DNA from: an uncultured virus (IMG/VR IMGVR_UViG_3300008107_000141)
Taxonomy: Duplodnaviria > Heunggongvirae > Uroviricota > Caudoviricetes
Strand: one strand, 5' to 3'
Length of the DNA stretch: 64,000 nucleotides
IMG/VR virus record: IMGVR_UViG_3300008107_000141
This document shows, piece by piece, positions 465 to 56,720 of the stretch (position 1 is its first letter; each line of letters begins with the position of its first letter). Under the pieces are notes generated by a model, which saw nothing but the letters and a program-made list of their open reading frames with translations, did not search any database and was not told where the DNA came from. Both the position numbers and the translations under genes were made by a program.

Positions 465-3400
465 ATGTCTAGTCCTTCCAACCTATATGCAGAAAAAGTG
501 TTCTCGGAGCACCCTACTGGCCTATGGGCCTTGGATGATAATGCAGACTACGTCTCTTTAATTTCAGAGTCACAAAGAAACCTTTCAAATTGGACAATTA
601 TTGGCGGTACGTATGAAGCATACTCTCAATCAGTAGACGAACCATTTATAAATAGTTATGTGGGCAAAATAACAGCAACTCCCACAAACAGTGAGTCAGG
701 ATCTGTTACTGCCATAAGTAATGACATAATGGGGTTAAAAGATTTAAACGAGTACCTAAGAACATTTTGTGTTGGAGGATATTTTTATTCTGAAAGTTCT
801 TACATTTCTGGGTTTGAAATAGGGTATCAGTACGAAGACACAACAAGCGGACAAATAGTTACACATTTAAAAAATTATGATACTGTAATAAATAATAGTT
901 GGGTTTTTATATCAGAAACATTTGACACTCCTCCAGACGATACAAACTTTAGGTTAGTTTTTAAAATTAATTTTATTGGTGGTTCAGAAACTGAAGATGT
1001 GTTTTTAGTTAATGGAATAAGTCTTGGACAGTGGTCGGAAGAGTTTGCCTCAACCTCTCTTGGCGTTACTCCTATAGACATTCCATCAACAATATCAATT
1101 GCTCCACAAAAAGGAATAGTTGCAAAATGTTACGGATTGCAAGATTTGGATGCGTATTATTTGATTTCTGACAACATGCTAAAAGCAAAAAATTTAGGAA
1201 TTCCTATTGTTTATGGAACATCAAGTCTAACTGCCCTTTATCCAAATGGGTCGAATCCATCTCTAATAGTTCCTGGTGTGGGATTTTTAAATGAGTCTGG
1301 AAAATTTAGAGAGTATACTTTAGAAACTTGGCTTAGAATAAACTCTTATTCAAATGAAGTAAAAAGAATTATTGGTCCAGTTGCATCCAATGACGGTATT
1401 TATGTAGACGGTCCTTCTATCGGACTTAAGATTGGTTCTGAATATAAAACATATTATGTAGGAGAGTGGACAAGGCCAATGCTTGTTCATTTAAGAATAG
1501 GAAAAGATATTATTTCTTTGCTTATCAATGGTCAAGAGGTAATTTCTTTGGACTATTCTGTAAATTCGTTGTCAGTTCCATCAATGTTGAATCAAACCGA
1601 AAAGGATCAAGACTGGATTGGCTTTTATGCACACGAGGACATATATCCAATAGAAATAGACTGTGTAGGAATTTATCCTTATGTTGTCCCAACTGCCGTA
1701 GCAAAAAGAAGATTCGTTTTTGGTCAAGGAGTAGAAGTTCCAGAAAATATAAATACTTCTTATAGTGGAACATCTGTTTTTATTGATTATGCTTTTGCTG
1801 ATTATACTTCAAACTATTCTTATCCAAAAATTGGATCTTGGCAACAAGCATTTAACGATAATACATCAATAGTTAATAAGGCTTTGTCTGTACCATCTGC
1901 CCCACTTCCAAAAATATTTTTGTCATCAAAAACAGAGAGTGAGTTGTTCGCTAGTTGTAAAACCATACAGCAGTCAGATTCAGTAAACTTTTTTACATTT
2001 AGGCCAGACGCATCTTGGAACGATGTTTCAGGATATTTATTTTTTGAAAATTTTGATTTTATTAAAGAACCTACTTCTGCGTTTTATGGCTGTTTTAGGC
2101 TTCCTCAGTCTTCTAGCACTAAGCAAACGCTTTTTAGAATTGAAAAAGAAAACACAAGCAGTTATTTTGAAATAGAGTTGCTTAACAATCAAATTTCTTA
2201 TGTAATAAATTATGATGGAGTTTTAGAAACAATATACTCTCCAACAATAGCAGAGCCATTAGAGTTGATAGATATAGGACTAAACATTCCAGCGTTTATT
2301 TCAAGATTTGGAAATCCAGCAGCAGACTTTTTTGGATCTTTGTCAGATTTAAGAATGTATGTTGGTGGCAAAAAAAATGGAACTCAGACATTTACTGGAA
2401 AAATTTACAAGATAGGGTTTTGTAGTAAATACAATTTTCAAAAAATTAGATCTTTATTTAATGAAATAGGTGTCCCAGTTTGGAACGAAGACTTGTTTGC
2501 TATTTATCAAAATAATCAATTAATAAACATAGATGGAGGATTAGACACAACCTCTCTGCCACCATATGGCTCTGTAAATGATACTGCCAATGGTGCTATT
2601 AGTGGAGGTGGAGTCTTTATATCAGACGAAGACTTTCTTTTAGATCATACAGCAACATATACACTTGTACCAGATCAAGTTTTTGATACTTACAAACTTA
2701 CTGTTTCTGCAAACGCATATTGGGAAGATCAAATACCATTAACATATTTTGCAGAGTCTGTTTTGGATAAACGAGGAGACCAATATTTTGATCTTGATTT
2801 TATTCAGTTTAATGTTGATTATCCAGTAACGTCAAAAACAATTGCTATAGATAGTGAGCCAGTAGAATGGACATATGCAGATCTGGCAAATGAATATGGA
2901 ATTCCAATTCAAAGAACCTACGAATCGCTGGATAATTATTTGTTTACTGGATACAATGATTATGAAGATTTAAAAAATAAAATTGCAAAAGATTATAGGT
3001 ATGACACCGACGGCGCAGTTGTAAAAACCTACGTAACATTTCAGTACACAGAACTGGGAGCCAACCAAACACCATTTTATTTTACAAAAACAGAGAGGCC
3101 ATCTAGAAACGGAATATTGATTCCAAAATCAGATTGGATGACTACAAAATATGAAGTCGTAGATAACATGATTATTTATCCACCTTCTGGAGTAGATTTT
3201 AATGATCTTTCTATTGTAACCCATATAGACATTAATGTTAAAAACTCTCAGACAAACAATGTTAATATCAAAAAACTTTCTTACGCTTCTCAGGCATTAA
3301 ATGAATCAGACGGAAGCCCTATTGGTACAAGATTTGGCACACCTCTTTATCCATATACAAAGACTGGCATTTACTATAATTTTAAAAAGAACAATCCATT

Positions 3401-4181
3401 TTCAATATATACTGGATCATCTCCATATTTGTATTTAACAAAAAATAGCGGAATTCAGATAAAAGGACAATACGATCCTTTGGTAAATCGTGGATTGTCT
3501 ATTCCAATTAATCCTAGTAGAGCAAATAATTTTAAAGTAATTGCAGCGCAGATGGCTGTAAGATTTGATGGCGACTATTTCCCATATGCACCAACTCAAA
3601 TATTTGAAATAGAAAGCAAGTCATCATATATAAAGTTTTACATGGTTGCATGTGATCCTACTGGAAGAAGGGCAAAAGTCTATGGTATAGATGCCAAGAC
3701 TGGTCTAGTTCAAAATGGAATAGGTTTTTATTGGAACGGTAAAGTTGTTAAAGAGCCAGTCATAACTCTTCAAGAATGGGGCTTTTTGGGAATTAATTTT
3801 GCAGATAGTTTAGAGTTTTCATATTTTGAGGGGGCTGTAAGATTGACTGGGCCATTAGTATTCAACAGCATATCCTATTACCAATCAACAAATCTTCAAG
3901 AGGTTCAGAATATATCAGAAAGACCCTGGTTTAGGGTAAAGATTTTGTCTGGTGGCCCTTTGGACTGGGAGTTTTGGCATACTGGTCCATTTAACTGGAA
4001 CAAAGTTCTTGTTTTAACAGAGACCAGTTACTATGGAGTAAATCCTTCAGAGGTGTATAAGAGTTATACAGGAACCAATAAGATAATTGTAGGGGATAAT
4101 GTTCCAATAAGTGTTGGAAACTACGGTTACTCATTATACAATGACATATTCTGGAACAAATTTACTGTTGATCCAGTTTAA
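465..4181 (+). CDS. Large virion structural protein with concanavalin/LamG-like beta-sandwich regions
   Basis: 1238 aa, beta-rich. N-terminal HPTGLWALDD and YTLETWLRIN...LLINGQEV resemble LamG motifs. Lies upstream of the portal gene. Confidence 0.5.
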   Translation: MSSPSNLYAEKVFSEHPTGLWALDDNADYVSLISESQRNLSNWTIIGGTYEAYSQSVDEPFINSYVGKITATPTNSESGSVTAISNDIMGLKDLNEYLRTFCVGGYFYSESSYISGFEIGYQYEDTTSGQIVTHLKNYDTVINNSWVFISETFDTPPDDTNFRLVFKINFIGGSETEDVFLVNGISLGQWSEEFASTSLGVTPIDIPSTISIAPQKGIVAKCYGLQDLDAYYLISDNMLKAKNLGIPIVYGTSSLTALYPNGSNPSLIVPGVGFLNESGKFREYTLETWLRINSYSNEVKRIIGPVASNDGIYVDGPSIGLKIGSEYKTYYVGEWTRPMLVHLRIGKDIISLLINGQEVISLDYSVNSLSVPSMLNQTEKDQDWIGFYAHEDIYPIEIDCVGIYPYVVPTAVAKRRFVFGQGVEVPENINTSYSGTSVFIDYAFADYTSNYSYPKIGSWQQAFNDNTSIVNKALSVPSAPLPKIFLSSKTESELFASCKTIQQSDSVNFFTFRPDASWNDVSGYLFFENFDFIKEPTSAFYGCFRLPQSSSTKQTLFRIEKENTSSYFEIELLNNQISYVINYDGVLETIYSPTIAEPLELIDIGLNIPAFISRFGNPAADFFGSLSDLRMYVGGKKNGTQTFTGKIYKIGFCSKYNFQKIRSLFNEIGVPVWNEDLFAIYQNNQLINIDGGLDTTSLPPYGSVNDTANGAISGGGVFISDEDFLLDHTATYTLVPDQVFDTYKLTVSANAYWEDQIPLTYFAESVLDKRGDQYFDLDFIQFNVDYPVTSKTIAIDSEPVEWTYADLANEYGIPIQRTYESLDNYLFTGYNDYEDLKNKIAKDYRYDTDGAVVKTYVTFQYTELGANQTPFYFTKTERPSRNGILIPKSDWMTTKYEVVDNMIIYPPSGVDFNDLSIVTHIDINVKNSQTNNVNIKKLSYASQALNESDGSPIGTRFGTPLYPYTKTGIYYNFKKNNPFSIYTGSSPYLYLTKNSGIQIKGQYDPLVNRGLSIPINPSRANNFKVIAAQMAVRFDGDYFPYAPTQIFEIESKSSYIKFYMVACDPTGRRAKVYGIDAKTGLVQNGIGFYWNGKVVKEPVITLQEWGFLGINFADSLEFSYFEGAVRLTGPLVFNSISYYQSTNLQEVQNISERPWFRVKILSGGPLDWEFWHTGPFNWNKVLVLTETSYYGVNPSEVYKSYTGTNKIIVGDNVPISVGNYGYSLYNDIFWNKFTVDPV

Positions 4182-4183
4182 TA

Positions 4184-4192
4184 TGGTATACT
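4184..4192 (+). promoter_or_regulatory. Extended -10 promoter, leaderless transcript
   Basis: TGGTATACT, then 7 nt, then ATG 4200; no SD. Confidence 0.65.
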
Positions 4193-4199
4193 TATTGTC

Positions 4200-4586
4200 A
4201 TGGATTCATTAATAAACCCAAAAACTGGTAAGCCAATTGTACAAAATGTACGACGTAAAGTAATTGAAAAGAATTACAATTGGGGTCTTTATGTATATAA
4301 AAGGTCAAATGGCAAGTGGTTTACAGACGGACATGGGTCAGTTTTAAATATTCCATCTGAAAAGGGAGATATTTCCAAAATTGCAGAACTAAAAAAAGTT
4401 GCAATGTATTACGGAGACCCTGGAGATGGCGAAGCAATTTTTGTTCCAGGCGGGACCAGGGTATCAGAAGAAGAGTATTCTGAGCAAGTAGACAGAATGA
4501 AGTCAGGCCTTATTCCATCCCTAAATGACTTGGGTGCTGTACAAGCAGCAAAAGATACAATTGCTAAGTATGGAGATGAGGATTAA
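4200..4586 (+). CDS. Hypothetical protein preceding portal
   Basis: 128-aa ORF with its own promoter, abutting the portal gene. Confidence 0.75.
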   Translation: MDSLINPKTGKPIVQNVRRKVIEKNYNWGLYVYKRSNGKWFTDGHGSVLNIPSEKGDISKIAELKKVAMYYGDPGDGEAIFVPGGTRVSEEEYSEQVDRMKSGLIPSLNDLGAVQAAKDTIAKYGDED

Positions 4587-11807: not shown

Positions 11808-12464
11808 ATGGCATACAGCCGTGGTTCAAGTAGTAACATTATCGTGGGTGCAGCAGCACTCTTCACGCATAATGCAGGTCCAATCGGATACGACTCAGCG
11901 CTTGGCAAGATTACTGATGCAAAAGCAGCACTAGATCTTCCAGCAATGACAGCATCCGCAACATCCTACAAGGAAACTTTGTCACTTGATGACGAAAATT
12001 ACACCAACGTAGGTTATACATCGAACGGTTTGGAACTCGCATTCCAGCCAGATTTCGGTGAAGTAGCAGTAGATCAACTTCTCGACGTTGCTCGTCTATT
12101 CAAGCAAGGTATGACAGTTAATCTAAATACATCATTCGCAGAGGCAACACTAGAAAATCTTTTAGTTGCAATTGCAGCAGATGATACAGACCTAGTATCA
12201 GCATCAGGACTCTCAACATTGAAGATGTCCGCAGGTGATATTGGTGACGTTCCACTAGAGCGTGGACTAGTAGCAGTAGGACCAGGATCTGGTTCTTCAG
12301 CAACTCCAAAGGAAAGAATCTATGTTGCATACCGTGCACTCTCAATTGAGAATGTTACAGTATCAGCAAAGCGTGATGAGGCTTCAATGTTTGAAGTATC
12401 ATTCCGTCTCCTTCCAAACGATGACGCATCATACGGTAAAATCGTAGATCGTTCACTCGACTAA
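11808..12464 (+). CDS. Major tail (tube) protein
   Basis: NIIVGAAALF, VGYTSNGLEL, VDQLLD, T.FAEATLENL motifs; biased codons; synteny. Confidence 0.8.
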   Translation: MAYSRGSSSNIIVGAAALFTHNAGPIGYDSALGKITDAKAALDLPAMTASATSYKETLSLDDENYTNVGYTSNGLELAFQPDFGEVAVDQLLDVARLFKQGMTVNLNTSFAEATLENLLVAIAADDTDLVSASGLSTLKMSAGDIGDVPLERGLVAVGPGSGSSATPKERIYVAYRALSIENVTVSAKRDEASMFEVSFRLLPNDDASYGKIVDRSLD

Positions 12465-12481: not shown

Positions 12482-12510
12482 AGCCCAGACTCACAAGGTC
12501 TGGGCTTTTC
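12482..12510 (+). terminator. Intrinsic terminator after major tail gene
   Basis: AGCCCAGAC-TCACAAG-GTCTGGGCT-TTTC. Confidence 0.75.
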
Positions 12511-12514
12511 CATT

Positions 12515-12523
12515 TGGTATACT
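12515..12523 (+). promoter_or_regulatory. Extended -10 promoter, leaderless transcript
   Basis: TGGTATACT, then 6 nt, then ATG 12530. Confidence 0.65.
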
Positions 12524-12529
12524 TATATA

Positions 12530-13210
12530 ATGGCAACAAGCGTATATGAAAAGAAAAAATTTTCTCTTATTGATGGAACGGTCATTGATGCTGCTCCACT
12601 AAAAATAAAATATCTTAGAGAATTTTTAACAAAATTTGAAACAATAAAATCAGCAAAAACAGATGATGAATCAATATCTGTCTTGGTTCTTTGTGCTCTT
12701 ATAGCAATGAAGCAATATGCTCCATATATAAAAACTATAGATGACCTTGAAGACAATTTAGACTTACCAACAATATATGAGGTTATCGATATTGCAGCAG
12801 GAATTAAGATTAATCAAAAATCAGAAGAGCCAGTAAAATCTCAAGCCGTAGATAGCGGATCTTCCTGGGAGACTTTGGATTTAGCAAAATTAGAAGCAGA
12901 GGCGTTTTTGATTGGCATTTGGAAAGACTATGAAGAATTAGAACAATCTTTGTCAATGCCTGAATTAACTGCAACAATTAAGGCTAAAAGAGATTTAGAC
13001 TACAGCGATAAAAAGTTTGCCGCTGCTATGCAAGGTGTGGATCTTGATAAAAATTCAGGGAATAGTAATGAATGGGAAGATATGAAGGCTAGGGTATTTA
13101 GTAAAGGTGCAGCAGAAAATGGAAATGATATCCTTGCACTTCAGGGTAAAAATGCAGAAAGGGCTGGTTTTGGAATAGGAATGGGCCTAACCTATGAGGT
13201 TATAGAATAG
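12530..13210 (+). CDS. Tail assembly chaperone, long (G-T-like) form
   Basis: Lies between tail tube and TMP. The N-terminal ~95 aa is paralogous to 13267..13590; the C-terminal half carries WKDYEELEQSLSMPEL. Confidence 0.7.
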   Translation: MATSVYEKKKFSLIDGTVIDAAPLKIKYLREFLTKFETIKSAKTDDESISVLVLCALIAMKQYAPYIKTIDDLEDNLDLPTIYEVIDIAAGIKINQKSEEPVKSQAVDSGSSWETLDLAKLEAEAFLIGIWKDYEELEQSLSMPELTATIKAKRDLDYSDKKFAAAMQGVDLDKNSGNSNEWEDMKARVFSKGAAENGNDILALQGKNAERAGFGIGMGLTYEVIE

Positions 13211-13266
13211 CAAAAAAATAGACTCCGCTATGGTATAATTAACTTTAACCTTATAAGGAGGAATAA

Positions 13267-13590
13267 ATGGCAACTGCCACGGAAGAAAAAACAGTAACTC
13301 TCATCGATGGAACAAAGATCAAGGTAAGACCATTAAAGATCTCACTACTTCGTCCATTCATGAAGAAGTTTGAAGATATCGCCAAAGTAGCAGAAGACAA
13401 TGAAAAGTCAATGACTCTACTTATGGAATGTGTACAAATCGCAATGCAGCAATACAAGCCAGAGTTGGCGGAAGACAAGGAAGCCCTAGAAGAAAATATA
13501 GACCTTCCTACAGTATACAAGATCGTCGAAGAGGCATCTGGAATTAGACTTTCAGACGCAACTCTGCTTGGCAATCTTGTAAATAACTAA
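13267..13590 (+). CDS. Tail assembly chaperone, short (G-like) form
   Basis: Own promoter TGGTATAAT (13231-13239) and strong SD TAAGGAGG; paralog of the preceding gene's N-terminus. Confidence 0.7.
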   Translation: MATATEEKTVTLIDGTKIKVRPLKISLLRPFMKKFEDIAKVAEDNEKSMTLLMECVQIAMQQYKPELAEDKEALEENIDLPTVYKIVEEASGIRLSDATLLGNLVNN

Positions 13591-13608: not shown

Positions 13609-16600
13609 ATGGCTGATGTTCAATCCAATATTCATGTAAATATTGATACGTCAGATGCTTTAGCAAGTTTAAAACTTCTACAGCGTCAAATATCAGCCTT
13701 CCACACACAGATGTCAAAGTCTGGCGCAGCAGCGTCAGCGGTAGCAGCAAATCAAGCACAAAACTTGATGAACAGCATAAATGCTACTGGAAAATTTCAA
13801 GCAACCATGCGAACGGTTGCTACAAGTACTGAGTATTTTACTAACGCTTTAGAAAAAAATAAACTAACCTCCAGAGAGTATTTTAGGTATACTGGAGCAG
13901 CAACCAAAACTTTTGGTAGACTTTTTAAATCTGAGTTTGAAACAATAAATAAAGTTGCACGAGAGCGTGTAAAAGATATCCAGACCCAGTATATAAAGAT
14001 GGGTCGTGGGGCAAATGGAGCCCTTCAAGCCATTGCCGTAAGACCTCTCACATTGGACATGAAAAATCTTGCTACACAAACGCAAATCGCAGCACAGAGA
14101 CAGCAACTATTAAATCAATTACTAAAGCAAGGCTCAACTAATCTATTAAATTTTGGTAAGAATACGCAGTGGGCTGGTCGTCAGTTGATGGTTGGTTTTA
14201 CAGTGCCATTGATGCTACTCGGATCAACTGCAGCAAAAACTTTCATGAAACTTGAAGAGCAGGCAATTAGGTTTAAGCGTGTTTACGGTGAAATGTTTAC
14301 TACGCAAGAAGAAACTGACGCAATGGTTAAGCAGATACAGACACTTGCAAAAGAATATACTAAGTATGGTGTTGCTGTTGAAAAGACCATGGAGATGGCA
14401 GCAAACGCTGCAGCAATGGGTAAAATGGGTGCAGAACTTACTGCACAAGTTACCGAAGCAACACGACTTGCCGTGCTTGGCGGTGTTGAACAGGAACAGG
14501 CTCTTGAGACAACAATTTCTGTTACTAACGCATTTGGTGTAGCAGCAGAAGATTTGGCAAAGAAGATTGACTTCCTTAACGCAGTTGAAAACCAAACTGT
14601 TGTATCTATTGAAGATTTAACTATTGCTATTCCTAAAGCAGGACCAGTTGTACAGCAACTCGGTGGCGATGTTGAAGACCTAGCATTCTTCCTTACAGCA
14701 ATGAAGGAAGGTGGTATTAATGCATCAGAAGGCGCTAACGCACTTAAGTCTGGTCTAGCATCATTAATCAATCCATCTGAAAAAGCATCTAAGATGCTCG
14801 CAGGGCTTGGCATAAATATTAAAGGTATTGTTGAAGCAAATAAAGGAGATGTTGCAGCAACTGTTGTAGGATTTTCACAAGCCTTAGATACACTAGATCC
14901 GCTTAATCGTGCAAGAGCAATTGAGCAATTGTTTGGAAAGTTCCAGTTTTCAAGACTTTCAACACTATTTAAGAACGTAACTGCAGAGGGCTCTCAGGCA
15001 GCCAGAGTTTTGGGATTAACAAAAGCAACAACAGAAGAGTTAGCAATTCTGTCACAGCGAGAATTGGACAAGATAGAAAATACAACAACATATAAGTTTA
15101 AAAAGTCTATAGAAGATCTTAAGGTAACACTTGCACCAGTTGGAGAGCAGTTCTTAAAGGCTCTTACTCCAATTGTAGAATTTGCATCTAAGATTTTAGA
15201 TAAATTTAATAACCTGGGAGAAGGAAGTAAAAAGTTTTTAACTATTCTCACCGTAGCGCTAGGAGCAATTGGACCGATTGCTCTTATGACATTCGGTCTG
15301 TTGGCTAACGGACTTGCAAATATAATTAAGTTATTTGCAACAATGAAAACCTCGTTCAACCGTGCTGGCTCATCAACACAGATACTTGGTAACCAAACAG
15401 ACTATTTAACTCAACAACAACTTGAGGCATCTGCAGTAGCGGCATCATTAGATCAAGTTCACCAAAAACTTAGACAAACCTTTACCTCTGAAACTGCAGC
15501 AGTCAATGCACTTGCAGCAGCATATCAAAGGGCAATCGCTTCACAATTAGGATTTACTGGACCAGTAGGTAGAGGTGGAAAAGGTGGCGGTATCCCACAA
15601 AGTAGAAGATACTCAACAGGCGTTGAAAGAGTTCCAGGACCAATGGGTGCAGGCGACATTGTCCCAGCATTGCTATCTCCTGGCGAAGCAGTTATTCCTG
15701 CACAAGCAGCACAAGATCCAGCAAATAGGCCAGTTATTACTTCTTTAATTAATGATGGAACGGCTGTTCCTAAAACTAAAAAGAAAAGAACTAAGCCAGA
15801 TACGGTTTTTGCACATGCGACAAGTCCGCAACAAATGCAGACAAAGAATATTTCAGACCAGTTTGGCGACATACGAACCAATCTTGGAGCAAGAGGAATT
15901 GAAAGAGCATTAGGATATCGTGGACTTGGGTTTGATATTCCAGAAGAAGTTCACAAGAAACTTACAAATAATACTTTAGATGTAAGAGAATATGAGGCAG
16001 AAATAAGAAAGGCTCGTGCTGTAGAGACAATGACTTCTCAGTTAATGAAGCCACCTTCTAATTTAACCGCAGATGAGGCTTCACGAGTAACAAACAAGAT
16101 TCGTAAAAACTTAATATTATCTTTACAAAATCTTCCAGATGGAACAAAAATAGGTGACAGAGTAATATACTCACGAATGGGTAATCTTAAAACAGGTGTA
16201 ATGGGTGGTCTTGCAAGAGACCCAAGAATTGCACCAGCAATTGAAAAGATATACTCTGTTGCTGGCATCGGCGCTGCATCTGCTTCAACTATAAAGTATG
16301 ACGCAAAGAAAATGGCTGTTGAAGATCTTATAAAAAATATAAGAACTTATGCTCCAAACACTAACCCATCTGTTGTTTCTGCAATAGAGGATCTTGCTAA
16401 AAAAGCCCCAGGAATAATGCTTGATGTTAAGCGAGATGGTGACAAGGTTGTTGCATACGAAAGACCAGAAGTTAGTGGAAAGAAGAAGTCTAAAAATCCA
16501 AATGACTGGACATTAACAGATAAAAGAAATAATGGTTCTTTAGTACAGGATAAAAACGGAAACTGGGTATTTAAAACTGGAAGATCTGGTGGAGACACTG

Positions 16601-19600
16601 GTGCAGTAAAGATTGGCGGTACTGCAGGAAAAAAACTTCTTGAAAAAGCAAGAGCAGCACTACAAGGCTTAACCGCAGAAGACATTGATGGCAGACCAAT
16701 TACCACATATGGCAAGCAACTTGAAAAGGGTACTGGATACAGCAATGTTGCTGCTCGTGATGCCTCTGGAGTGTTCCTAACAGAAGACGGTAAAAAGGTT
16801 TATGTAAAGCCAATGCCTGATTTGCGAGCAGCGCTTGCAGAGCAAAGAGCAACAATAATAGCAAGAGAAGTACATGGGCTTGAGGCTCCAAAGCAAGAAC
16901 TTAGAGTTATTAAGGATCCATACACTGGAAAAACAATGTTTGCTCTTGAGTCTGCCTATGATCCAAAGTTTACTCCAAAAGAATTGTCAGGCAATTTTAG
17001 CAGAGAAGAATATTTCAGACAACTGGTTGCAGCAAATCTTCGTGGCGATGACGACCTAAAGAAAGGAAACTTAGGCGGAAATAGGTTAGTAGATGTTGGC
17101 AAGGCTGGCGTACTAGATGGAGCGTCTGGACCAAGAGGTTACGCAGAAAGAATGCCATCAATGCTTGAAATGGCAGAAAAGAATTTAAGTGGAGTTAGGG
17201 GTCCAGCAGCAGGCAAATCACCATTCTGGTTTGGAAATGCAACGGCAGATATTGCAAAGAATATGACTCCTGATGAATACCATAAAGCAATGATTGCTGA
17301 AATTGATAGAACATTGCCAAAACTAAAAGAAACGATAGCAAAATTTAATCTTGGACCAGAAGATCAAAAATACTATCAGGCAATGATAGACAGACTTGAA
17401 GAAGGCAAAAAGGTTAACTGGAGACTCGTACACGCAAAGCATAATGCCATTCTAGTAAAGCCCGATGAATTGGTTGAAGATGAAGATGGAAAAACAGAAA
17501 AGCCAAAAACAAGAAGAAAAACTAGAGGCGTTAAGTCAGGTAGTCCAAAAGATACAAGAGAAATGAATAAGCCCAAAAAGGGTAAGAGAATTGTTCAAGG
17601 TCCTAGAGGTGTAAGGGTTCCTGGTTTTGCAGATGCTCCAGAATCAAGCAGTGCAATAGGTTCATCAATAGTTGCTGGAGCAAAATCTTCTATAGCAGAG
17701 GCTAAGTCAACAGGACAAAAAATTGGATTAACTATTTCCCAGTCTGCAGCAGCAGCATCAAGAACAGCGCTTTATGGTAGTGGGCCAGTAGATGCTAATC
17801 AAAAATCTCTTCGTCGTAAATTAGAAAAGTTAGAAAGAGATAACAAGAGATTAAATAAGATAGCAGCGCAAGCGCCAGTTCCTCAGCCAGTGGTTGCTGC
17901 AAACATGGCACAAGATGGACAAAGAATGACACCATCTGGAAGAATTAAATCCTATATTCAAAGAAGAGAAGATAAGAGGGCCGCAAGGGTCGCAGCAGGC
18001 AAGGGACCTGGTATGGGTGTCGGAGGCGCTGCTATGGCTGCCTCTGGAATTGCAATGCTAGGATCCATGGCCCCAGGCAAAGTTGGAGAAATTTCTCAAA
18101 AGATAATGATGCCTTTAATGGGTCTTTCAATGATTTTGCCTATGCTAAAGAGCCCAGTAATGGCAGTAATTGCAGGGCTTACAGCAACAGTTGGAGCATT
18201 TATTGCATTAAGAATGGCATTTAATAGTGCTCAAGAAAAAGTTTTGCAAGAGGCAGAAAAGTTTAGAGGGTCTACATCAGCAATTCAGAGCATAGCAAAG
18301 TTTGGCGGTAAAGTAACTGCATCAGAACAAATGGATCTAAGAAGAAAGAACTCGTTCTCAATGCTAGGTCCAGCAACAGGCAAAACAACATACGGAGAGG
18401 CTTTTGCTCAAACAAAAGAAGGAAAGGCTTTAACTGAAAATATAGCAAAACAAAATGCAGCAGGAAAGGGTGGTCAGGTAGTTTCTGACTTGACAAGCCA
18501 ACTTTCAACTGCAGTAATGTCTGGAGCAATGGATATTAATCAAGCAAAGAGTCTTGCAATGAATGCTGCTAAAGAAGCAGGAGATATGTCTATAGGTCTT
18601 AAAGTTATTGCACAAATGGAAAAGGTTCTTGGACCAAACGGAGAGGATTTAGATAAAAACCCTCTTGAAGTTAGAACAAGAATGATTGCCGAAAATCAAA
18701 AGAGAATGCAGTCAAACATGTCAAACATTGAAAATGCTGGCATGATTACTAAACTTGCTGGACAAAAAACAATGCAAAAGGTAGGCATAGGCGCATCTGC
18801 TGCAGGTGGCGCAGCGATAGGAGCAACACTTGGTGCTGCTCTTGGAAGCGTTGTCCCAGTTCTTGGAAATGCTGTTGGAGCAATAATCGGTGGCGGTATC
18901 GGTGCTGCAGCAGGAGCAATTGGTGGATATTTTGCCTCAAAGAAATTTACTCAACAGTCCGCACAACTTGGAGCAGCATATGCAGTAGATGCTAAAATTG
19001 CAATGGAGCAAAATAAGCAAATGCTAGATTCATTTGATTTGTATATGGAAAAGAAAGTTGAAGAGTTAAGACTTCAAGGAAAAATTAATGAAGCAAATGA
19101 ATTGCAAGAAAAGTTAATTGACAAAAGAAATGATTTAACAGCAGCACAAAGAGTTATTCAAGAAGATATTGTTTCTCAGTACAACAGTGCTGGTGGTATG
19201 CAAGAGTCAATGATGAGTGGTATGAAAAAGGCTGCCAAGGCTAGATATAAAGATAATCCAAATGAAATTGCTTACATGGATGTTGTTGGTGCACAGGCAG
19301 GACAACTTCGTAAAGATGGCGCAATAGATAAAGGTCAAGAATTTTTAATTCAGGCAAAAATGGCAAGTGGCGATATTCCTCCATCAGTCTTTAGACAACT
19401 TCTTCAGATGGCAACAGATAACAAAGACATTGCTCCAAAGATGATGAATATTATAACAAAGTTTAGTGGTGCTACATCTGAATCAATTGGTGTTGCTGCT
19501 CAAAATATTCTTAACGCTAAGGGAGATATTGACAAAACAGTACAGGCACAATTTATTACTAAAGTTTCAGCATTTGAAGAAGATTCAGACGCACTAGACT

Positions 19601-22600
19601 TTGCTAAAAATATGATTAAGTTAAACAATTTAAACGCAGTTATACCGTCTAATGTTTTGGTTAAATACTACACAGAAAATGATGCAGCCTATCAACAACT
19701 AAACACAATGCTTGACGCCATTGAAGGCAAAAAAGATTTAACAGCAACCATGGTGTACGAAATTATTCCACAGGTTAAAGGAACTAATGCATTTAATGAA
19801 GATTACTTTAATACTTTAACAGAAGACCAGCAAAAGGTGTATACAACAACAATTGCTTCAGTTATTAATGTTCCAGATCCACAGATTGTTGCAACTGACG
19901 ACTACCAGACATGGCTAAAAGAAAACACAGTAATTGAGGGTAGAACATACGGTGGAGCACAGTATAAGGGGCTATCGCAGGCTGCTTTAATTGCTCACTA
20001 TAAAGAACAGCAAGGTTTCAAGGCTGTAACTGAGGGAGCATCTATAACAGCAAAGGCTCCAGTTGGTGGTGGCGACAAGAGTAGTGGCAATAAGCCAAAG
20101 TCTTCGCCTTTAGATGATTTGGTAAAAAGGTTGAGAGATGTTCGTAAAAATCAGATTAAGGTTACAGAAGGTTTTGATGCATCGTTTAAATCTTTAAATA
20201 AATTATTTGGTGGCAAGAAAACTATTGATATTTTCGGCGGTATAGAAAATGACATGAGAAGATTGGGAGCAGGAGAAGACCTAATTGAACTCATCGTCGG
20301 CATGGATCCAAAAGAGTATGAAAAACAAAAGAATAAGTTATTTAAGTTTGATGAAAAAGGAAATATTATAAAAATAAAAGATGGCGCTAAGAGCATTGGA
20401 GATGCCCTTCAGTCTGTCAAACTTGGAGAGTTTGTTAGTGAACAACAAAAAATGGCTAATCAAATAGGTGATCAAACTGCAGCACTTAAGAGATTGCAGG
20501 CAGCAGGCATAGAAGGCTCTGTTGCTCTAGAAGCAGTAGCAGACGCTACCTTTGCAGCAGCAATTGCTAATAAGAACCTATCTGACGAACAAATAAAAAA
20601 GATAACCAAGGCATGGAACAAATCAACCAAGGCCAAAAGAGAGTATGCCGCTGTAGAGGCTGGTATACAAGAAAAGCAAGAGTTGCAAGACAGAGTAACA
20701 TTATTGAAAAAAATTACTGGAGCATTTGGAAGTTTAAAACAAGAAGAACTTCAAGCAATTATGGATAGTTCTGCACTACAAAATCTGTTAATTAATTTTG
20801 GTATAGATAATAAAGATTTTAAAGATTTGCTTCAGAAGGCAGTAGATAAAGCAAAAGTTGAATTAAAACTTAAGCAAGTGACTATTGAAGGAATGCAGGA
20901 TATATTTGATACTGGATATAGCAATGCAATGGAAGCATTTGATGTAGAAGAAACAAGGCTAAGACTTAATTTTGATGAGTCAAATAAAAAACTCAAAGAT
21001 GAAATTAAAAAGGCTGAAGAACTGATTGCCGTAAAGCAAGAGCAGATCAGAGTACAGGAAATAGGATTAAAAGAAATTGAAGACCAAGAGGCCAAGGTAA
21101 ATGAAAAATATGATGAAAGATTAAAGGCTCTTGATGAGGTTGAAAAAGCAAATGCTTCAATATCACAGCAACAGAAAGGTCAACTAACTCTTGCCGAGGC
21201 GTTGACATCTGGAGATATTGCTGCTGCTGCTCGTGCTGCACAAGAAATGAGAGCGCAGTCTGCAGCCGATGCCGTAACAAAACAAAAGGATGCCTTAGAA
21301 AAATCAAGAGAGTATGAACTATCACAACTAAGATCTAAAGACGGCAGAAGTAGAATTGAAATCGAAAAAGAAATTAAAAAACTTCAGGACGAAATTTATG
21401 ATATTGAACAAAAGAGCCTTGAGCCAAATAGAGAAACATTAAGACTTAATGAACTTGCTTTAGAAAAGGCGATTGAGGGAATTACTGTATTAGGAAAAAC
21501 AAGAGATGCATGGGAAAGAATTAAAAACGAAGTTGATCTTGCAAGAGTTAGTTCAGCACAATTTGTTAAGCAGATGCAGGATGCTCTTGATATTGTTAAT
21601 GCTTTGATTGCTGCCTATAAGAATCAAACAGTAAATACAGATCCAATCATTCCCGCTGGAGGGTACCAAGATCCTGGTGTCACTACATGTCCTCCAGGAT
21701 TTAAACTAGTTAACGGTAACTGTGTTAAGAGTGATACCGAAACAGGATGTCCTACAGGATACAGTATGGTAAATGGAAACTGTGTTAAGGATGAAACAGG
21801 TGCAAAACCATGTCCTGCAGGGTATAGCATGGTAAATGGAAACTGTGTTAAAAATCAAGATGGTGAAGGTAACAAAACTAACCCATGTGGTTCTGGGTAT
21901 TTCTTAAATCAAGAAGGAAAGTGTATTCCTATAAAAAATTCTTCAACTGATTCATCAACTGGGTCCTCTTCAGGGTCATCGTCTGGATCTTCAGGAGGGT
22001 CTAATAATTTTGATGCACTTAACTATGGACTTAATACTGGCGGATCAACTGCTGCCTTGCATTTAGAAGATTTAAGCAGAATTGCTGATGCCGTTACAGT
22101 TGCAAATATTACTAAGAATGCTGGACAAACTGCAGGAAGCCATGTTAATGATTTATTAAATATGAAGGATAGAGCAGATGCCTTTAATAAAGAAATTGTT
22201 AATGCAAATATTAAAAAGATGGGCGCCACTCCATATGCCCATTTAGACGAACTAACAAATACTCCAGCACAAAAGGCTAAGTCAGCAGCAGCATTTAGTG
22301 CAGAGGTAAAGGCAGCAAATGCTAAAAAGGCTGCAGAAGAAGCAGCAAAGAAAAAGGCTGCAGCAGATATTAAGAAGTTTGGTGGCAATGCCATAGCAGC
22401 GTCGCAGTTTGCAAACTGGAAAGCCATGGGTGGCTTAATTCAAAGATTTGCTATGGGTGGATTTGCTAGGGGGACTGATACAGTTCCAGCAATGTTAACT
22501 CCAGGCGAGTTTATTATGAGTAAGTATGCTGTCGATTCATACGGTCTAGATACAATGAGAAAAATAAATAATGGAGAGTTGTCTGGCGGTTCAGTGTATA

Positions 22601-22734
22601 ATAATACATATACCCTAACAGTAAATGCTAAGACAGATGCAAATCCAGACGAAATTGCACAGGCTGTAATGGCAACTATAAAGAGGGTTGACGACAGAAG
22701 AATTAGGGGGGTGGCTATAGGTGGCAGAAGGTGA
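13609..22734 (+). CDS. Tape measure protein with inserted cargo domains
   Basis: 3041 aa. TP901-type core (AMKEGGINASEGANALKS), hydrophobic segments, coiled coils and C-terminal TDTVPAMLTPGEF. Confidence 0.9.
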   Translation: MADVQSNIHVNIDTSDALASLKLLQRQISAFHTQMSKSGAAASAVAANQAQNLMNSINATGKFQATMRTVATSTEYFTNALEKNKLTSREYFRYTGAATKTFGRLFKSEFETINKVARERVKDIQTQYIKMGRGANGALQAIAVRPLTLDMKNLATQTQIAAQRQQLLNQLLKQGSTNLLNFGKNTQWAGRQLMVGFTVPLMLLGSTAAKTFMKLEEQAIRFKRVYGEMFTTQEETDAMVKQIQTLAKEYTKYGVAVEKTMEMAANAAAMGKMGAELTAQVTEATRLAVLGGVEQEQALETTISVTNAFGVAAEDLAKKIDFLNAVENQTVVSIEDLTIAIPKAGPVVQQLGGDVEDLAFFLTAMKEGGINASEGANALKSGLASLINPSEKASKMLAGLGINIKGIVEANKGDVAATVVGFSQALDTLDPLNRARAIEQLFGKFQFSRLSTLFKNVTAEGSQAARVLGLTKATTEELAILSQRELDKIENTTTYKFKKSIEDLKVTLAPVGEQFLKALTPIVEFASKILDKFNNLGEGSKKFLTILTVALGAIGPIALMTFGLLANGLANIIKLFATMKTSFNRAGSSTQILGNQTDYLTQQQLEASAVAASLDQVHQKLRQTFTSETAAVNALAAAYQRAIASQLGFTGPVGRGGKGGGIPQSRRYSTGVERVPGPMGAGDIVPALLSPGEAVIPAQAAQDPANRPVITSLINDGTAVPKTKKKRTKPDTVFAHATSPQQMQTKNISDQFGDIRTNLGARGIERALGYRGLGFDIPEEVHKKLTNNTLDVREYEAEIRKARAVETMTSQLMKPPSNLTADEASRVTNKIRKNLILSLQNLPDGTKIGDRVIYSRMGNLKTGVMGGLARDPRIAPAIEKIYSVAGIGAASASTIKYDAKKMAVEDLIKNIRTYAPNTNPSVVSAIEDLAKKAPGIMLDVKRDGDKVVAYERPEVSGKKKSKNPNDWTLTDKRNNGSLVQDKNGNWVFKTGRSGGDTGAVKIGGTAGKKLLEKARAALQGLTAEDIDGRPITTYGKQLEKGTGYSNVAARDASGVFLTEDGKKVYVKPMPDLRAALAEQRATIIAREVHGLEAPKQELRVIKDPYTGKTMFALESAYDPKFTPKELSGNFSREEYFRQLVAANLRGDDDLKKGNLGGNRLVDVGKAGVLDGASGPRGYAERMPSMLEMAEKNLSGVRGPAAGKSPFWFGNATADIAKNMTPDEYHKAMIAEIDRTLPKLKETIAKFNLGPEDQKYYQAMIDRLEEGKKVNWRLVHAKHNAILVKPDELVEDEDGKTEKPKTRRKTRGVKSGSPKDTREMNKPKKGKRIVQGPRGVRVPGFADAPESSSAIGSSIVAGAKSSIAEAKSTGQKIGLTISQSAAAASRTALYGSGPVDANQKSLRRKLEKLERDNKRLNKIAAQAPVPQPVVAANMAQDGQRMTPSGRIKSYIQRREDKRAARVAAGKGPGMGVGGAAMAASGIAMLGSMAPGKVGEISQKIMMPLMGLSMILPMLKSPVMAVIAGLTATVGAFIALRMAFNSAQEKVLQEAEKFRGSTSAIQSIAKFGGKVTASEQMDLRRKNSFSMLGPATGKTTYGEAFAQTKEGKALTENIAKQNAAGKGGQVVSDLTSQLSTAVMSGAMDINQAKSLAMNAAKEAGDMSIGLKVIAQMEKVLGPNGEDLDKNPLEVRTRMIAENQKRMQSNMSNIENAGMITKLAGQKTMQKVGIGASAAGGAAIGATLGAALGSVVPVLGNAVGAIIGGGIGAAAGAIGGYFASKKFTQQSAQLGAAYAVDAKIAMEQNKQMLDSFDLYMEKKVEELRLQGKINEANELQEKLIDKRNDLTAAQRVIQEDIVSQYNSAGGMQESMMSGMKKAAKARYKDNPNEIAYMDVVGAQAGQLRKDGAIDKGQEFLIQAKMASGDIPPSVFRQLLQMATDNKDIAPKMMNIITKFSGATSESIGVAAQNILNAKGDIDKTVQAQFITKVSAFEEDSDALDFAKNMIKLNNLNAVIPSNVLVKYYTENDAAYQQLNTMLDAIEGKKDLTATMVYEIIPQVKGTNAFNEDYFNTLTEDQQKVYTTTIASVINVPDPQIVATDDYQTWLKENTVIEGRTYGGAQYKGLSQAALIAHYKEQQGFKAVTEGASITAKAPVGGGDKSSGNKPKSSPLDDLVKRLRDVRKNQIKVTEGFDASFKSLNKLFGGKKTIDIFGGIENDMRRLGAGEDLIELIVGMDPKEYEKQKNKLFKFDEKGNIIKIKDGAKSIGDALQSVKLGEFVSEQQKMANQIGDQTAALKRLQAAGIEGSVALEAVADATFAAAIANKNLSDEQIKKITKAWNKSTKAKREYAAVEAGIQEKQELQDRVTLLKKITGAFGSLKQEELQAIMDSSALQNLLINFGIDNKDFKDLLQKAVDKAKVELKLKQVTIEGMQDIFDTGYSNAMEAFDVEETRLRLNFDESNKKLKDEIKKAEELIAVKQEQIRVQEIGLKEIEDQEAKVNEKYDERLKALDEVEKANASISQQQKGQLTLAEALTSGDIAAAARAAQEMRAQSAADAVTKQKDALEKSREYELSQLRSKDGRSRIEIEKEIKKLQDEIYDIEQKSLEPNRETLRLNELALEKAIEGITVLGKTRDAWERIKNEVDLARVSSAQFVKQMQDALDIVNALIAAYKNQTVNTDPIIPAGGYQDPGVTTCPPGFKLVNGNCVKSDTETGCPTGYSMVNGNCVKDETGAKPCPAGYSMVNGNCVKNQDGEGNKTNPCGSGYFLNQEGKCIPIKNSSTDSSTGSSSGSSSGSSGGSNNFDALNYGLNTGGSTAALHLEDLSRIADAVTVANITKNAGQTAGSHVNDLLNMKDRADAFNKEIVNANIKKMGATPYAHLDELTNTPAQKAKSAAAFSAEVKAANAKKAAEEAAKKKAAADIKKFGGNAIAASQFANWKAMGGLIQRFAMGGFARGTDTVPAMLTPGEFIMSKYAVDSYGLDTMRKINNGELSGGSVYNNTYTLTVNAKTDANPDEIAQAVMATIKRVDDRRIRGVAIGGRR
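21688..21927 (+). repeat. Four tandem Cys-rich repeats inside TMP
   Basis: CPPGFKLVNGNCV, CPTGYSMVNGNCV, CPAGYSMVNGNCV, CGSGYFLNQEGKCI; similarity also visible at DNA level. Confidence 0.85.
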
Positions 22735-29532: not shown

Positions 29533-29970
29533 ATGAGTAAAACTCCAGATAAAGGAATAAAAAATGTTATTATTAAAAAAGATTCTTTGGGAAAGGTTAC
29601 TGAAAACAATTCTGTTGTTTTAAGATTTAGAATAATATCAGATGATAAAAATAGAAAGTCTGCATATTCTCAAATATTTGTTGCTGAATCTGGAGAAGTT
29701 CTTCTTGGTGTTGGAGATATAAATATTGTTGGAAACACAATAATGGTTAACTGGTCTGCTGGAGAAATATCAACTCAAATACTCTATGATGTTTTTATAG
29801 GCTTTGACTCTTCTGTTCCAACATTTAGGGCCTCTACAGGATCTTCAAATTATTCGTTTATTAAAACTGGAACCACATCTGTGCGTGTTGTTGTTCAGGC
29901 ATCATCCGTTAACCCATCTTTAAATCCTGATTTAAAAATATATGATTCTGGAATAGTCAGTCTGGTATAA
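29533..29970 (+). CDS. Putative minor tail protein
   Basis: Beta-rich ORF at the end of the tail operon. Confidence 0.4.
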   Translation: MSKTPDKGIKNVIIKKDSLGKVTENNSVVLRFRIISDDKNRKSAYSQIFVAESGEVLLGVGDINIVGNTIMVNWSAGEISTQILYDVFIGFDSSVPTFRASTGSSNYSFIKTGTTSVRVVVQASSVNPSLNPDLKIYDSGIVSLV

Positions 29971-29977
29971 TTATATT

Positions 29978-30421
29978 ATGGCAATATTACCTTTACCCGA
30001 ACGGGGGCAGCCTTTAGATGTAACATATCTTTATCAGATAGTTAAGGCACTCAATGATCTTTCCAGTCAAGCGTCTACATCAATATATAAGTATGTTACG
30101 GTAGACACCCCAAACTCTGGCAAGCAGAGCGTAAAAACGTCTGAGGCAAGAATTATAGGAGGCTACGTTCAAGTAACTTCTGGCTCATCTCAAACAGCAG
30201 GATCTACCCAATCATTTTCATATAGTTTGCCAAGCGAGTTTAAGTTTCCTCCAGTTGTTACTGCAACTCCAATTAATATTGGAAATACAGATGCTGGAAA
30301 AGATGTTACGGTTACCCTATTAAGTATTTCAACATCGAAGATTGAAGGAGTTGTAAAGTTTAATGTTGGCGGAGACACTACTGTCGGTGTTAACTTATTG
30401 ATAGTGGGAATTCCTAATTAA
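29978..30421 (+). CDS. Putative tail fibre/tip accessory protein (H-type lectin-like C-terminus)
   Basis: F..PPVVTAT motif; leaderless promoter TGGTATAAT at 29963-29971. Confidence 0.45.
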   Translation: MAILPLPERGQPLDVTYLYQIVKALNDLSSQASTSIYKYVTVDTPNSGKQSVKTSEARIIGGYVQVTSGSSQTAGSTQSFSYSLPSEFKFPPVVTATPINIGNTDAGKDVTVTLLSISTSKIEGVVKFNVGGDTTVGVNLLIVGIPN

Positions 30422-44183: not shown

Positions 44184-44209
44184 ACCAAATGAATAATAAA
44201 AGGAGAAAA

Positions 44210-45337
44210 ATGAATTCATTTAAGAAGATCGCTCTTGCCGTGGTTGCAGCCATGACTATGAGCACACTAGTAATGACACCTGCAAGTGCCAATACCGTTT
44301 CTGTGGACGTAACAACAGAAATTTCTGGCGCAGGTACTGCAGCCTCACCATTTACAGTTAAGGTTCCATCTGATAACGTCGTAAGCGTTGCAGATACTTC
44401 AACTGTTACAAACAACGAAGCACTTCTTATCACCGCTACAGTTGTTGCTGGAACACCAGTAACATTTACTGCAGTTGGTGCTGGAACACGCCTCGTCTCT
44501 GCAATTGGTTCAACAGTTAATGCATCTGCTGGATCATCATCAATCACAGTCACACCTGCTTCAACAACAGCGACTGTATATGCATATACAACAACTACTG
44601 CTGCATCTGCGGTTACAGTTTCTGTAACTGGTGCAAGCACAACAATTTATCTTAAGGGTGTTGCAGGTCCTGCATATGAACTTAAGATGTCAATCCCTGC
44701 TTCAGGAAATATTTCTGGCAAGGTAACTGCAACTCTTGATGTAGCAGATATTTTCGGCAATGCTGTTGCTGATACAGTAACTGTTACTACTCTTGGTGGC
44801 GCAACTGCTGGAACAGTAACTGCTGATGCTCTTGTAACAGGTCGTTACACATCAGAGATCTCACTTCCTGCTGCTGCTGGAACCGTTGCTGTCGGTGCAT
44901 CTATTGCTGCTCCAACATCTGTTCCAACAATTAAGTTGGCAACAACTTCACAGACTGCAATCGTAACAGTGTCTGATCTTGCTACTGCTCTTGCTGCTGC
45001 TAACGCTGCACTTGCTGCAGAAAAGGCTGGTCGTGTTGCTGATGCAACTGCTGCTGCTACTGCTCTTGCTGCTGCTGTAAAAGCAGAACAAGACAAGGCT
45101 GCTGCTGCTGCAATTACTGCTGCTGCAGAATTGGCTAAGGCTAAGGCTGATGCTGTAACCGCTAAGGTTGCTGCAGACAAGGCACTTGCTGATGCAACTG
45201 CTGCACATGCTGCAGAACTTGCAAAGGTTAAGGCAGACAATGCTGCTGCAATCGCTGCAATGAAGAAGGCATTCAATGATCTTGCCAAGAAGTGGAACGC
45301 AAAGAATCCAAAGGCAAAGGTTACACTTGTTAAGTAA
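44210..45337 (+). CDS. Secreted/surface protein: signal peptide, Thr/Val/Ala-rich Ig-like region, Ala-rich coiled coil
   Basis: SD AGGAG; MNSFKKIALAVVAAM...PASA signal peptide; highly biased codons. Confidence 0.75.
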   Translation: MNSFKKIALAVVAAMTMSTLVMTPASANTVSVDVTTEISGAGTAASPFTVKVPSDNVVSVADTSTVTNNEALLITATVVAGTPVTFTAVGAGTRLVSAIGSTVNASAGSSSITVTPASTTATVYAYTTTTAASAVTVSVTGASTTIYLKGVAGPAYELKMSIPASGNISGKVTATLDVADIFGNAVADTVTVTTLGGATAGTVTADALVTGRYTSEISLPAAAGTVAVGASIAAPTSVPTIKLATTSQTAIVTVSDLATALAAANAALAAEKAGRVADATAAATALAAAVKAEQDKAAAAAITAAAELAKAKADAVTAKVAADKALADATAAHAAELAKVKADNAAAIAAMKKAFNDLAKKWNAKNPKAKVTLVK

Positions 45338-45365: not shown

Positions 45366-47003
45366 ATTAAAAAACTAGTAAGAGTATTGTCAGCAGCACT
45401 TTTGGCTTTTGGATTCAACCTATGGATTCCTGAAAATGCCTATGCAAACTGTGTAAACTTTATACAATCACAAACCATAGCAGCAGCATACGAAGGCGAT
45501 GCTGAACCTACAGTGCATCATATGGACACTTGCTCAGGTGACGACATATCTTATCAAATACCAATAGCAACTACCGTGACTTTTGACGGGGTACAGTATG
45601 AAAACATTTATGCAACAACTAACTCAGTAATTACATTTGGACAACCTGACGGTACATTTCATACCTATCCATCTACACCATCTATCTCTTTATATTCAAT
45701 GGACTGGTTTCCAGGAGTGAGCGGAACATCTGGTTTGGACATATATTATTCTGAAGGTGGGTTTCAAATGAACCTCAATATGGTCCCATTCGGTAACTAT
45801 GGGGCACAGCCAAGTACAGTAAATATATTGGTGGCTATCACTAATACTGGCGGTTTGGCGGTGTCTTACAGTTATCAAGGCCCTGAATATCAAAATCTTA
45901 GAACAGGTGTTCGTTTGCATGATGGGTCAGTAGTTTCTTTGGAGGCTTGGGGTGCAACACAGGTTTCGGCCTCTGATCCAGCCCCTACACTGCAAGCAGA
46001 GCCTATTCCAGAGCCATCTCCTACGCCTACCCAGCAGCCCTCTCCAGAACCCTCTCAAACGCCCACAGAAGCCCCTATAACGCCCGAAGAGCAGCAAGAG
46101 CAGGTGGCAGAGGCAGCACAGTTGGCTGGAGAAATATCAGACTTAAATAATCTTATTGCTTCTATTAATGGTGACACATTAAGTGAGCCAGATCCAGAAC
46201 TACCTTTGGATATTGAGCCAACTCCAGACCCAAGTCCTGAGTCTACAAATGAACTAGATTTGCCTGACCCTGATGTTGAGGTTGATCCAGAGATAATTAC
46301 TCCAGAGGATCCAAGGTTTCCTGACGATGAGGAGAATGATCCAGACAATGTAGAGCCTTCTCCAACTCCAGAATCCTCGCCTTCAGAGGACGAAGCATCA
46401 ACCGAACCAGAACCCAGTCCAGAGCCAATCCCAGACACAGACCAAACAGAAACCACAGAACCTGATCAAACACCTGAAGACACCCCTTCCGAAAATACTG
46501 AAACAGGTAATGATACCACAAACGATAGCAGTCCTATCTCTGATGAAGAACTTAATAAGTTAAATAAACTAATCGGACAAAATGATGCTAAATTGGCTGC
46601 AGAACTATCAAATATGTTGACAGAACTATCTTTATCTGAAGAAAAAGCATTGGCCAACGAGTTAGGCATTAAATCAGAAGATGTAGAAGCACTTGTTGAA
46701 TTAATTAAAGATGATCCTAAAATAGCAGTAGCCTTTGTAGAGTTTTCAAGTAGAGCAGAAGAAAACGCAGATGCCCCAATGCCATATACATTAGCAGATG
46801 CCGTTACTGAAGTACAAACAGAAGCATTCTTATCAGATCCACTTGGAGCAGTGTTCAATGTGGATGTTACAGAACTCCTATCTAATTTCTCTGAGTTAGG
46901 TATGGATATGACAGATGATCAGAGAGAAAAAGCACAGGAAGTAATTATCCCAGTAGTACTTGTTTCTAACATAGTATCTGCGGTAATTGGAATGAGGAGG
47001 TAA
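45366..47003 (+). CDS. Membrane-anchored surface protein with Pro/Glu-rich stalk (probable ATT start)
   Basis: Signal peptide (I)KKLVRVLSAALLAFG...AYA, NIDO-like TFDGVQYENIYATTNSVITFG, PE/PT stalk and hydrophobic C-terminus. Confidence 0.7.
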   Translation: MKKLVRVLSAALLAFGFNLWIPENAYANCVNFIQSQTIAAAYEGDAEPTVHHMDTCSGDDISYQIPIATTVTFDGVQYENIYATTNSVITFGQPDGTFHTYPSTPSISLYSMDWFPGVSGTSGLDIYYSEGGFQMNLNMVPFGNYGAQPSTVNILVAITNTGGLAVSYSYQGPEYQNLRTGVRLHDGSVVSLEAWGATQVSASDPAPTLQAEPIPEPSPTPTQQPSPEPSQTPTEAPITPEEQQEQVAEAAQLAGEISDLNNLIASINGDTLSEPDPELPLDIEPTPDPSPESTNELDLPDPDVEVDPEIITPEDPRFPDDEENDPDNVEPSPTPESSPSEDEASTEPEPSPEPIPDTDQTETTEPDQTPEDTPSENTETGNDTTNDSSPISDEELNKLNKLIGQNDAKLAAELSNMLTELSLSEEKALANELGIKSEDVEALVELIKDDPKIAVAFVEFSSRAEENADAPMPYTLADAVTEVQTEAFLSDPLGAVFNVDVTELLSNFSELGMDMTDDQREKAQEVIIPVVLVSNIVSAVIGMRR

Positions 47004-49828: not shown

Positions 49829-49869
49829 CGTGATATAATTATATTGTCATATCAACAAGGAGGAATATT

Positions 49870-56704: not shown

Positions 56705-56720
56705 ATGCTATAATAGTTTT

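Follow-up and report, generated by a model that had tools for sequence, protein, structure and literature searches.

The genome fragment analysed here comes from an uncultured aquatic phage and carries, between its tail tube and tape-measure genes, two paralogs that are likely to be its two tail assembly chaperones (TACs), G-T and G. We consider it quite probable that they derive from the duplication of one frameshifting locus, and that the excess of G is obtained through transcription and initiation signals and not through ribosomal slippage. The two halves of the long protein are homologous to the two frames of a single locus in relatives, the slippery heptamer of that locus has been lost, and the two genes have opposite, conserved start signals. 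In this phage and in more than 100 related sequences, a likely tail-assembly chaperone is probably present in a long and a short form encoded by two separate paralogous genes, whereas the nearest relatives have a single gene with a predicted ribosomal frameshift.

The window, i.e. the whole stretch of 64,000 nucleotides that was analysed, contains portal, protease, capsid, tail and DnaE-type polymerase genes, has a GC content of 37% and corresponds to a fragment of a phage genome. On the minus strand it encodes two adjacent glutathione peroxidase-family proteins (59489-60797, PF00255, 144 and 267 aa, 25% identical), and two 2OG-Fe(II) oxygenase-like genes are found beside them (60839-62233). 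Genes for tRNA-Asn (49756-49829), tRNA-Thr (58335-58407) and tRNA-Arg (63238-63310) were predicted, the last prediction overlapping an extended -10 motif at 63232-63240. Large ORFs with neither PHROG nor Pfam match are present at 465-4181 (1238 aa), 44189-45337 (382 aa) and 45387-47003 (538 aa). The tape measure gene has non-canonical inserts at 17000-17400 and 21600-21900 of the window; a kinase-like stretch was recognised by eye in the translation at residues ~1130-1270, and Cys-rich CPxGYxxVNGxCVK repeats are located at residues ~2690-2750.

Features of the region between the tail tube and tape-measure genes, in window coordinates
Feature	Position	Strand	Basis or remark
Tail tube (major tail) protein gene, upstream neighbour	11808..12464	+	homology to annotated major tail proteins
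Hairpin resembling an intrinsic terminator, with T-rich tail, behind the tail tube gene	12482..12514	+	10-bp stem at 12482-12506
Extended -10 TGGTATACT	12515..12523	+	6 nt before the G-T ATG (12530); leaderless transcript predicted
Putative fused G-T (TAC-NC) gene, 226 aa, single open frame	12530..13210	+	halves correspond to phrog_10504 and phrog_10474
G-like (TAC-N) domain of the fused protein, residues 1-97	12530..12820	+	45% identity to the short paralog
T domain	12854..13207	+	homologous to the -1 frame ORF of frameshifting relatives
Extended -10 TGGTATAAT of the short gene	13231..13239	+	27 nt before the G ATG (13267)
Shine-Dalgarno TAAGGAGG of the short gene	13254..13261	+	5 nt before the G ATG
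Putative stand-alone G (TAC-N) gene, 107 aa	13267..13590	+	phrog_10504, E 5e-20
Tape measure protein gene, 3041 aa, downstream neighbour	13609..22734	+	PHROG tape-measure families, E 1e-97; Pfam PhageMin_Tail

The tail tube gene product shares 43-46% identity with the proteins annotated as major tail protein in five Streptomyces phages, and its match with Pfam Phage_TTP_17 is weak (E 0.016). The original prediction placed between the tail tube and tape-measure genes a pair of proteins with a common N-terminal domain. This was confirmed, with agreeing coordinates: residues 1-95 of the 226-aa protein align with residues 1-96 of the 107-aa protein (44/97 identical, E 3e-25).

The identification of these proteins as TACs is likely; its grounds are gene position and homology, and the fold lends weak support. 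They are encoded where TACs are expected, between the tail tube and tape-measure genes, and they are homologous to annotated TAC-N proteins and post-frameshift T ORFs. The long protein matches phrog_10504 over residues 1-100 and phrog_10474 over residues 130-218, and the short protein matches phrog_10504 alone. A tblastn search matched 130 phage records (127 Streptomyces, 3 Rhodococcus); among the 60 matches listed, all are in two pieces, under genes annotated as tail assembly chaperone or hypothetical. Reading frames were examined in six phage records, bearing in mind that the TAC annotations in phage records are themselves predictions. In five Streptomyces records G ends after ~115 codons and T overlaps G in the -1 frame, and a joined CDS is annotated in the records of Streptomyces phage Sham and Rhodococcus phage Francesca. 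The Streptomyces BE/BK phages, which had been put forward as relatives with one frameshifted locus, do have a single locus in which a -1 frame ORF overlaps the preceding one, and these two ORFs match the two halves of the 226-aa protein. The relatedness of its C-terminal half to post-frameshift T domains, on which the prediction depended, is borne out by 44-51% identity with the -1 ORF of five Streptomyces phages and by the joined CDS of Sham. In the relatives the -1 frameshift is a prediction, and it is reported as such for the BK1 phages (PMC10793280).

The predicted structural models consist of a beta-hairpin and helices, with a pLDDT of ~87 for the G-like domain; for the T domain the model is poor after residue 160 and no clear solved match was obtained. 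The best solved matches are YqbN, HK97 gp13 and Rbstp2171, all termed TACs in PMC9603447 and all weak here (Z 4.0-5.8 versus a tool threshold of 8). YqbN (3KLU) was the top match of the two wide searches (Z 5.5 and 5.8, rmsd 4.0 and 3.9, 84 aligned) and 3FGX was found with Z 4.3, values below the significance guide, as is the first Foldseek match of G, 2OB9 (E 0.98, TM 0.45). Several TAC/GT proteins were matched in BFVD with E-values from 2e-4 to 0.06. Foldseek of the 226-aa model against the PDB gave no match at E<=0.001, and no Pfam TAC family matched either window protein. A Pfam match to Rubisco LSMT (E 0.002, below cut-off) was discarded as helical noise. Since the N-terminal domain is the annotated TAC of the BE/BK phages and the solved TAC folds are matched, if weakly, the TAC identity proposed originally is not refuted. 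The host is presumed to be an actinobacterium on the basis of the Streptomyces and Rhodococcus relatives; the eight GTDB loci are in bins of mixed phyla, which do not indicate a host.

To compare the locus with its relatives, 334 loci, redundant between scans, were assembled from four IMG/VR scans (80 loci each from 422, 584, 563 and 152 confirmed), one GTDB scan (8 loci) and the six phage records. The scans were ranked by likeness to the query, so that locus counts are not frequencies in nature. A fused G-T followed by G was found in 240 loci, a single locus with T in the -1 frame in 89, and 5 were cut by contig ends. Intermediates between the duplicated and the single -1 state were not found among the 334 loci, nor was a fused locus without stand-alone G where the tape-measure gene is in view. 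Deduplication, for which truncated rows and the nine loci fetched last were dropped, left 127 distinct duplicated and 60 distinct frameshift-type sequences from 230 and 88 records, window included. Representatives at 50% identity were also searched without a profile. Of the 401 matches, 150 were listed; three of these span the full query, and many contain T or G alone. The fusion therefore appears to be restricted to a clade within a mostly split family.

All 60 distinct -1 loci have a slippery-type heptamer in the G frame within the overlap: GGGAAAC (31), CCCAAAT (12), CCCGGAA (9), CCCAAAC (7) and GGGAAAT (1). These five heptamers, a list drawn from the data themselves, are absent from 118 distinct fused junctions and from 101 distinct G ends. 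At the window locus G and T are in one frame, and the frameshift typical of the lambda G/GT class is missing; the pair would act as G/GT does while lying outside the recoded class. CCCGGAA falls short of a full X XXY YYZ heptamer and permits P-site re-pairing only. In the BE-type Streptomyces phages (L081, L082, L166-L171 and L175) T, in the -1 frame, follows a conserved C CCG GAA, in many cases immediately past a -1 frame stop, which makes this a candidate atypical -1 site; T is annotated as a separate gene in the two BE records examined. An internal insertion is present in the frameshift-type G of L183, L184 and L334, where the G profile matches in two pieces, and the G of Francesca has 174 aa.

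An ancestral frameshift followed by one duplication is the most likely history according to the trees, with some conflict among them. In the G-domain tree of 47 rows, 11 of them aquatic frameshifting rows, one clade holds the G-T N-domains (100/99) and another the stand-alone G (80/92), and the frameshifting G is the third side (87/60), which supports the gene duplication originally claimed. The two states are also separate on the T tree with these 11 rows (85), and are not separated on the corresponding tube tree. The tape-measure tree unites 37 duplicated loci in a single clade (SH-aLRT 92), which lies within successive frameshifting groups. Mean identity within the class is 50% for the G-T N-domains and 65% for G, and mean identity to the aquatic frameshifting G is 41% and 57%, respectively: the G-T N-domain diverged faster after the duplication.

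It is unlikely, although some trees could be read in this manner, that the duplicated state arose repeatedly or that some frameshifting relatives reverted or swapped the cassette, which would concern the history only. With sparse sampling, four frameshifting GGGAAAC loci are nested in the stand-alone G on the G tree and lie inside the duplicated group on the tube and T trees, and on the concatenated tree the frameshifting L292/L307 nest with the duplicated L210 (SH-aLRT 97). However, the sparse G tree also has all G-T N-domains in one clade (99/90), and the G and T trees with the 11 aquatic rows split the states as described above. The grouping of L210 with L292/L307 is confined to the tape-measure tree (99), the partition to which the concatenated conflict traces; this suggests that the tape-measure gene was exchanged between loci of the two states. 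Moreover, L292/L307 retain the CCCAAAC/T site that they share with Streptomyces BK phages, as expected from retention. A single origin is not rejected (p-AU 0.215, 31 of 56 rows) in an AU test performed by fast search with LG+F+G4 and 5000 replicates, too few per the program. Reversion to frameshifting, at which the sparse G tree had hinted, was weakened by the denser sampling.

The start signals of the two genes are conserved. TGGTATACT, TGGTATAAT and TAAGGAGG are present where they had first been described, and the position of these motifs predicts a leaderless G-T and a G with its own promoter. The hairpin after the tail tube gene (folding energy -23 kcal/mol, z -6.3) directly precedes TGGTATACT. 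A hairpin of -10 kcal/mol or better is found upstream of G-T in 83/83 distinct loci and upstream of G in 7/111. All 91 distinct regions upstream of G-T have a -10-like hexamer, with the TG extension in 88; its spacing to the ATG is 6 nt in 69 and 5-9 nt in 88. A Shine-Dalgarno motif was found in 0/91 of them, partly by construction, the stretch being the promoter. Upstream of G, a TG-extended -10 is located 23-37 nt before the start in 106/106 distinct regions, and 105 have a Shine-Dalgarno motif (median duplex energy -11.6 kcal/mol). In the 53 distinct regions upstream of the frameshifting G, a -10 occurs 23-43 nt before the start in 49 and a Shine-Dalgarno motif in 40. These leaders resemble those of the stand-alone G, and the downstream copy would therefore have kept the ancestral leader type, which the upstream copy lost. 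Neither the TGGTATACT nor the TGGTATAAT promoter was reported by a sigma-70 scan that requires a -35 hexamer, so both are at most of the extended -10 type.

The pattern TGNTATAMT occurs 22 times in the window versus 7.9 +/- 2.7 in shuffles, and 0/100 shuffles reached this number. An ATG located 6-7 nt past the same extended -10 motif is also found at 4184-4200, 29963-29978, 55716-55733 and 56706-56722; leaderless starts thus look common in this phage. In locus L329 an endonuclease VII gene (L329:1285-1842, 185 aa, PF02945 E 8e-22) is inserted between G-T and G and has TGATATACT 6 nt before its ATG. The promoter motif of G is located at the end of this gene, and G still has its own TGCTATAAT; the G-T and G genes therefore need not adjoin.

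The predicted chaperone activity, transcription starts and G:G-T ratio would combine as follows. In the upstream copy G and T would have become fixed in one frame and the leader lost, with the ATG at or beside +1. The downstream copy would have lost T and retained the ancestral promoter, leader and Shine-Dalgarno. The transcript of the tail tube gene would stop at the hairpin, insulating G-T from this strong transcript, and a leaderless transcript would yield G-T and then continue into G. The second promoter, with its full Shine-Dalgarno, would yield more G and probably also tape measure. As there is no conserved hairpin between the genes, G would be on both transcripts, and for this reason and because of its full Shine-Dalgarno it would exceed G-T. 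The presumed actinobacterial host may initiate efficiently on leaderless transcripts, in which case the ratio could differ widely from the 30:1 of lambda. On the lambda model, G together with the G portion of G-T would form a coat on the tape-measure protein, and T would bring in the tail tube subunit.

The same two chaperones could also be made in a ratio that is irrelevant or not strongly in favour of G, the diverged G-T being specialised, e.g. in starting or capping the chaperone spiral, and the promoters setting timing and not amount. We judge this improbable. The G-T N-domain diverges faster and has a conserved motif of its own, PLKIKYLR versus PLKISLLR, but faster divergence would be expected equally of a low-abundance copy. 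Several other window genes have an ATG or TTG 6-7 nt past the same motif, so that leaderless starts are not special to a scarce product. However, G has two predicted upstream promoters and a near-invariant strong Shine-Dalgarno, and the ratio is reported to be crucial in lambda (PMC5009743, PMC3296357). It is much less likely still that the long ORF is the entire chaperone system, its short form arising by slipping out of frame, with the downstream gene as a spare paralog or a decoy against a TAC-sensing defence. Decoys are conceivable, since Avs17 is reported to sense the N-terminal core of TACs (preprint 10.64898/2026.01.04.697583), and some in-frame X XXY YYZ heptamer exists in 9/118 junctions. 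Against slipping, these heptamers are A-run types, unconserved and missing from the other 109 junctions. Against a spare or decoy role, the downstream gene is the more conserved copy, is closer to the frameshifting G, has kept the ancestral leader type and is present in every fused locus with the tape-measure gene in view.

The in-frame extension of the 226-aa copy was recovered in RNA libraries. Contigs of 2/4 RNA runs span the whole long ORF without indel, the other two not covering it. These two are shallow runs with contigs over the tube gene and G and a gap at G-T, which was not counted because G is better conserved across strains and gaps of this kind are no evidence. Such metatranscriptome contigs place the region in RNA libraries; starts, strand and levels are not readable from them. 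An assembly artefact or chance indel fusing two ORFs is extremely improbable, given independent RNA-run contigs across the junction, the same fused frame in the 240 fetched loci (redundant between scans) and 127 distinct duplicated loci reaching down to ~48% identity with the window G-T.

A G-T and G pair with expression set by start signals would mean that the G/G-T frameshift can be replaced in nature, by duplication and expression control, in a lineage far from T4. We see even chances for a broader reading, that a single duplication ended a highly conserved recoding event in a large aquatic siphovirus clade, rebuilt the stoichiometry through leaderless versus Shine-Dalgarno starts, and left the G domain of G-T free for specialisation, with a hetero-subunit chaperone spiral as the outcome. 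The ancestral and derived states can be aligned, and the frameshifting sisters at ~57% identity constitute a natural before-and-after pair. If the proposal is true, whether the frameshift is kept for the ratio alone becomes directly testable, and its purpose could be sought in the ratio, in identical N-domains or in insensitivity to the host tRNA state. Leaderless and leadered starts could likewise be compared among the late genes of phages. Annotators should not, as a matter of course, merge neighbouring TAC paralogs or label them as frameshifts; in BE phages, the ORF past the TAC that is listed as hypothetical would be the T frame behind CCCGGAA.

In the lambda G/GT class the short form is in large excess and TACs are absent from the virion. 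As in lambda, the genes are located between the tail tube and tape-measure genes, and short and long products have a common N-terminal domain, whose predicted fold weakly resembles that of TACs. In contrast to lambda, there are two genes without frameshift and with separate predicted promoters, the long gene is first, as the reversed order noted originally, and the N-domains are paralogous, with 40-45% identity, and not the same sequence. In lambda, gpG and the G part of gpGT are reported to bind the tape measure and T the tube subunit, at a G:GT ratio near 30:1 that is crucial and is altered by the host tRNA state, the last point from PMC3296357 (PMC5009743, PMC3296357). The TAC -1 frameshift is described as conserved (Levin 1993; Xu, Hendrix, Duda 2004, 2013, 2014; via PMC5009743, PMC3296357). 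Compared with the Stanwilliamsviridae (Streptomyces BE/BK), Francesca and the aquatic -1 relatives, G, T, tube and tape measure are homologous at 32-57% identity, and a terminator and an extended -10 are likewise located upstream. These relatives differ in having one locus with T in the -1 frame, CCCAAAT/C, GGGAAAC/T or CCCGGAA at the overlap, and no second G.

The T4 two-gene TAC pair is genes 26 and 51. Some T4-like phages are reported to have a separate short gene and a fused long gene without frameshift (PRFect preprint PMC10274946, citing Vladimirov, Gautam, Davidson, Virology 2022, 566:9-15). The window locus has this arrangement, a short gene and a long gene that fuses the short part to a downstream part. 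This precedent, absent from the original prediction, makes the locus less surprising. In the literature covered, subscription journals being mostly outside it, only the PRFect paper was found on tail chaperone duplication and no description of the present clade. No Pfam/PHROG match with T4-like TACs was obtained at E<=1 for the window proteins, nor among 50 G proteins; with no T4 baseplate Pfam match here, an independent origin is likely. The locus is a clean new example and not a new principle, the T4-like two-gene solution having been reported already. The T4-like phages are myoviruses of another lineage; in contrast, close relatives of the present phage are still predicted to frameshift, so that the states before and after the duplication can be aligned.
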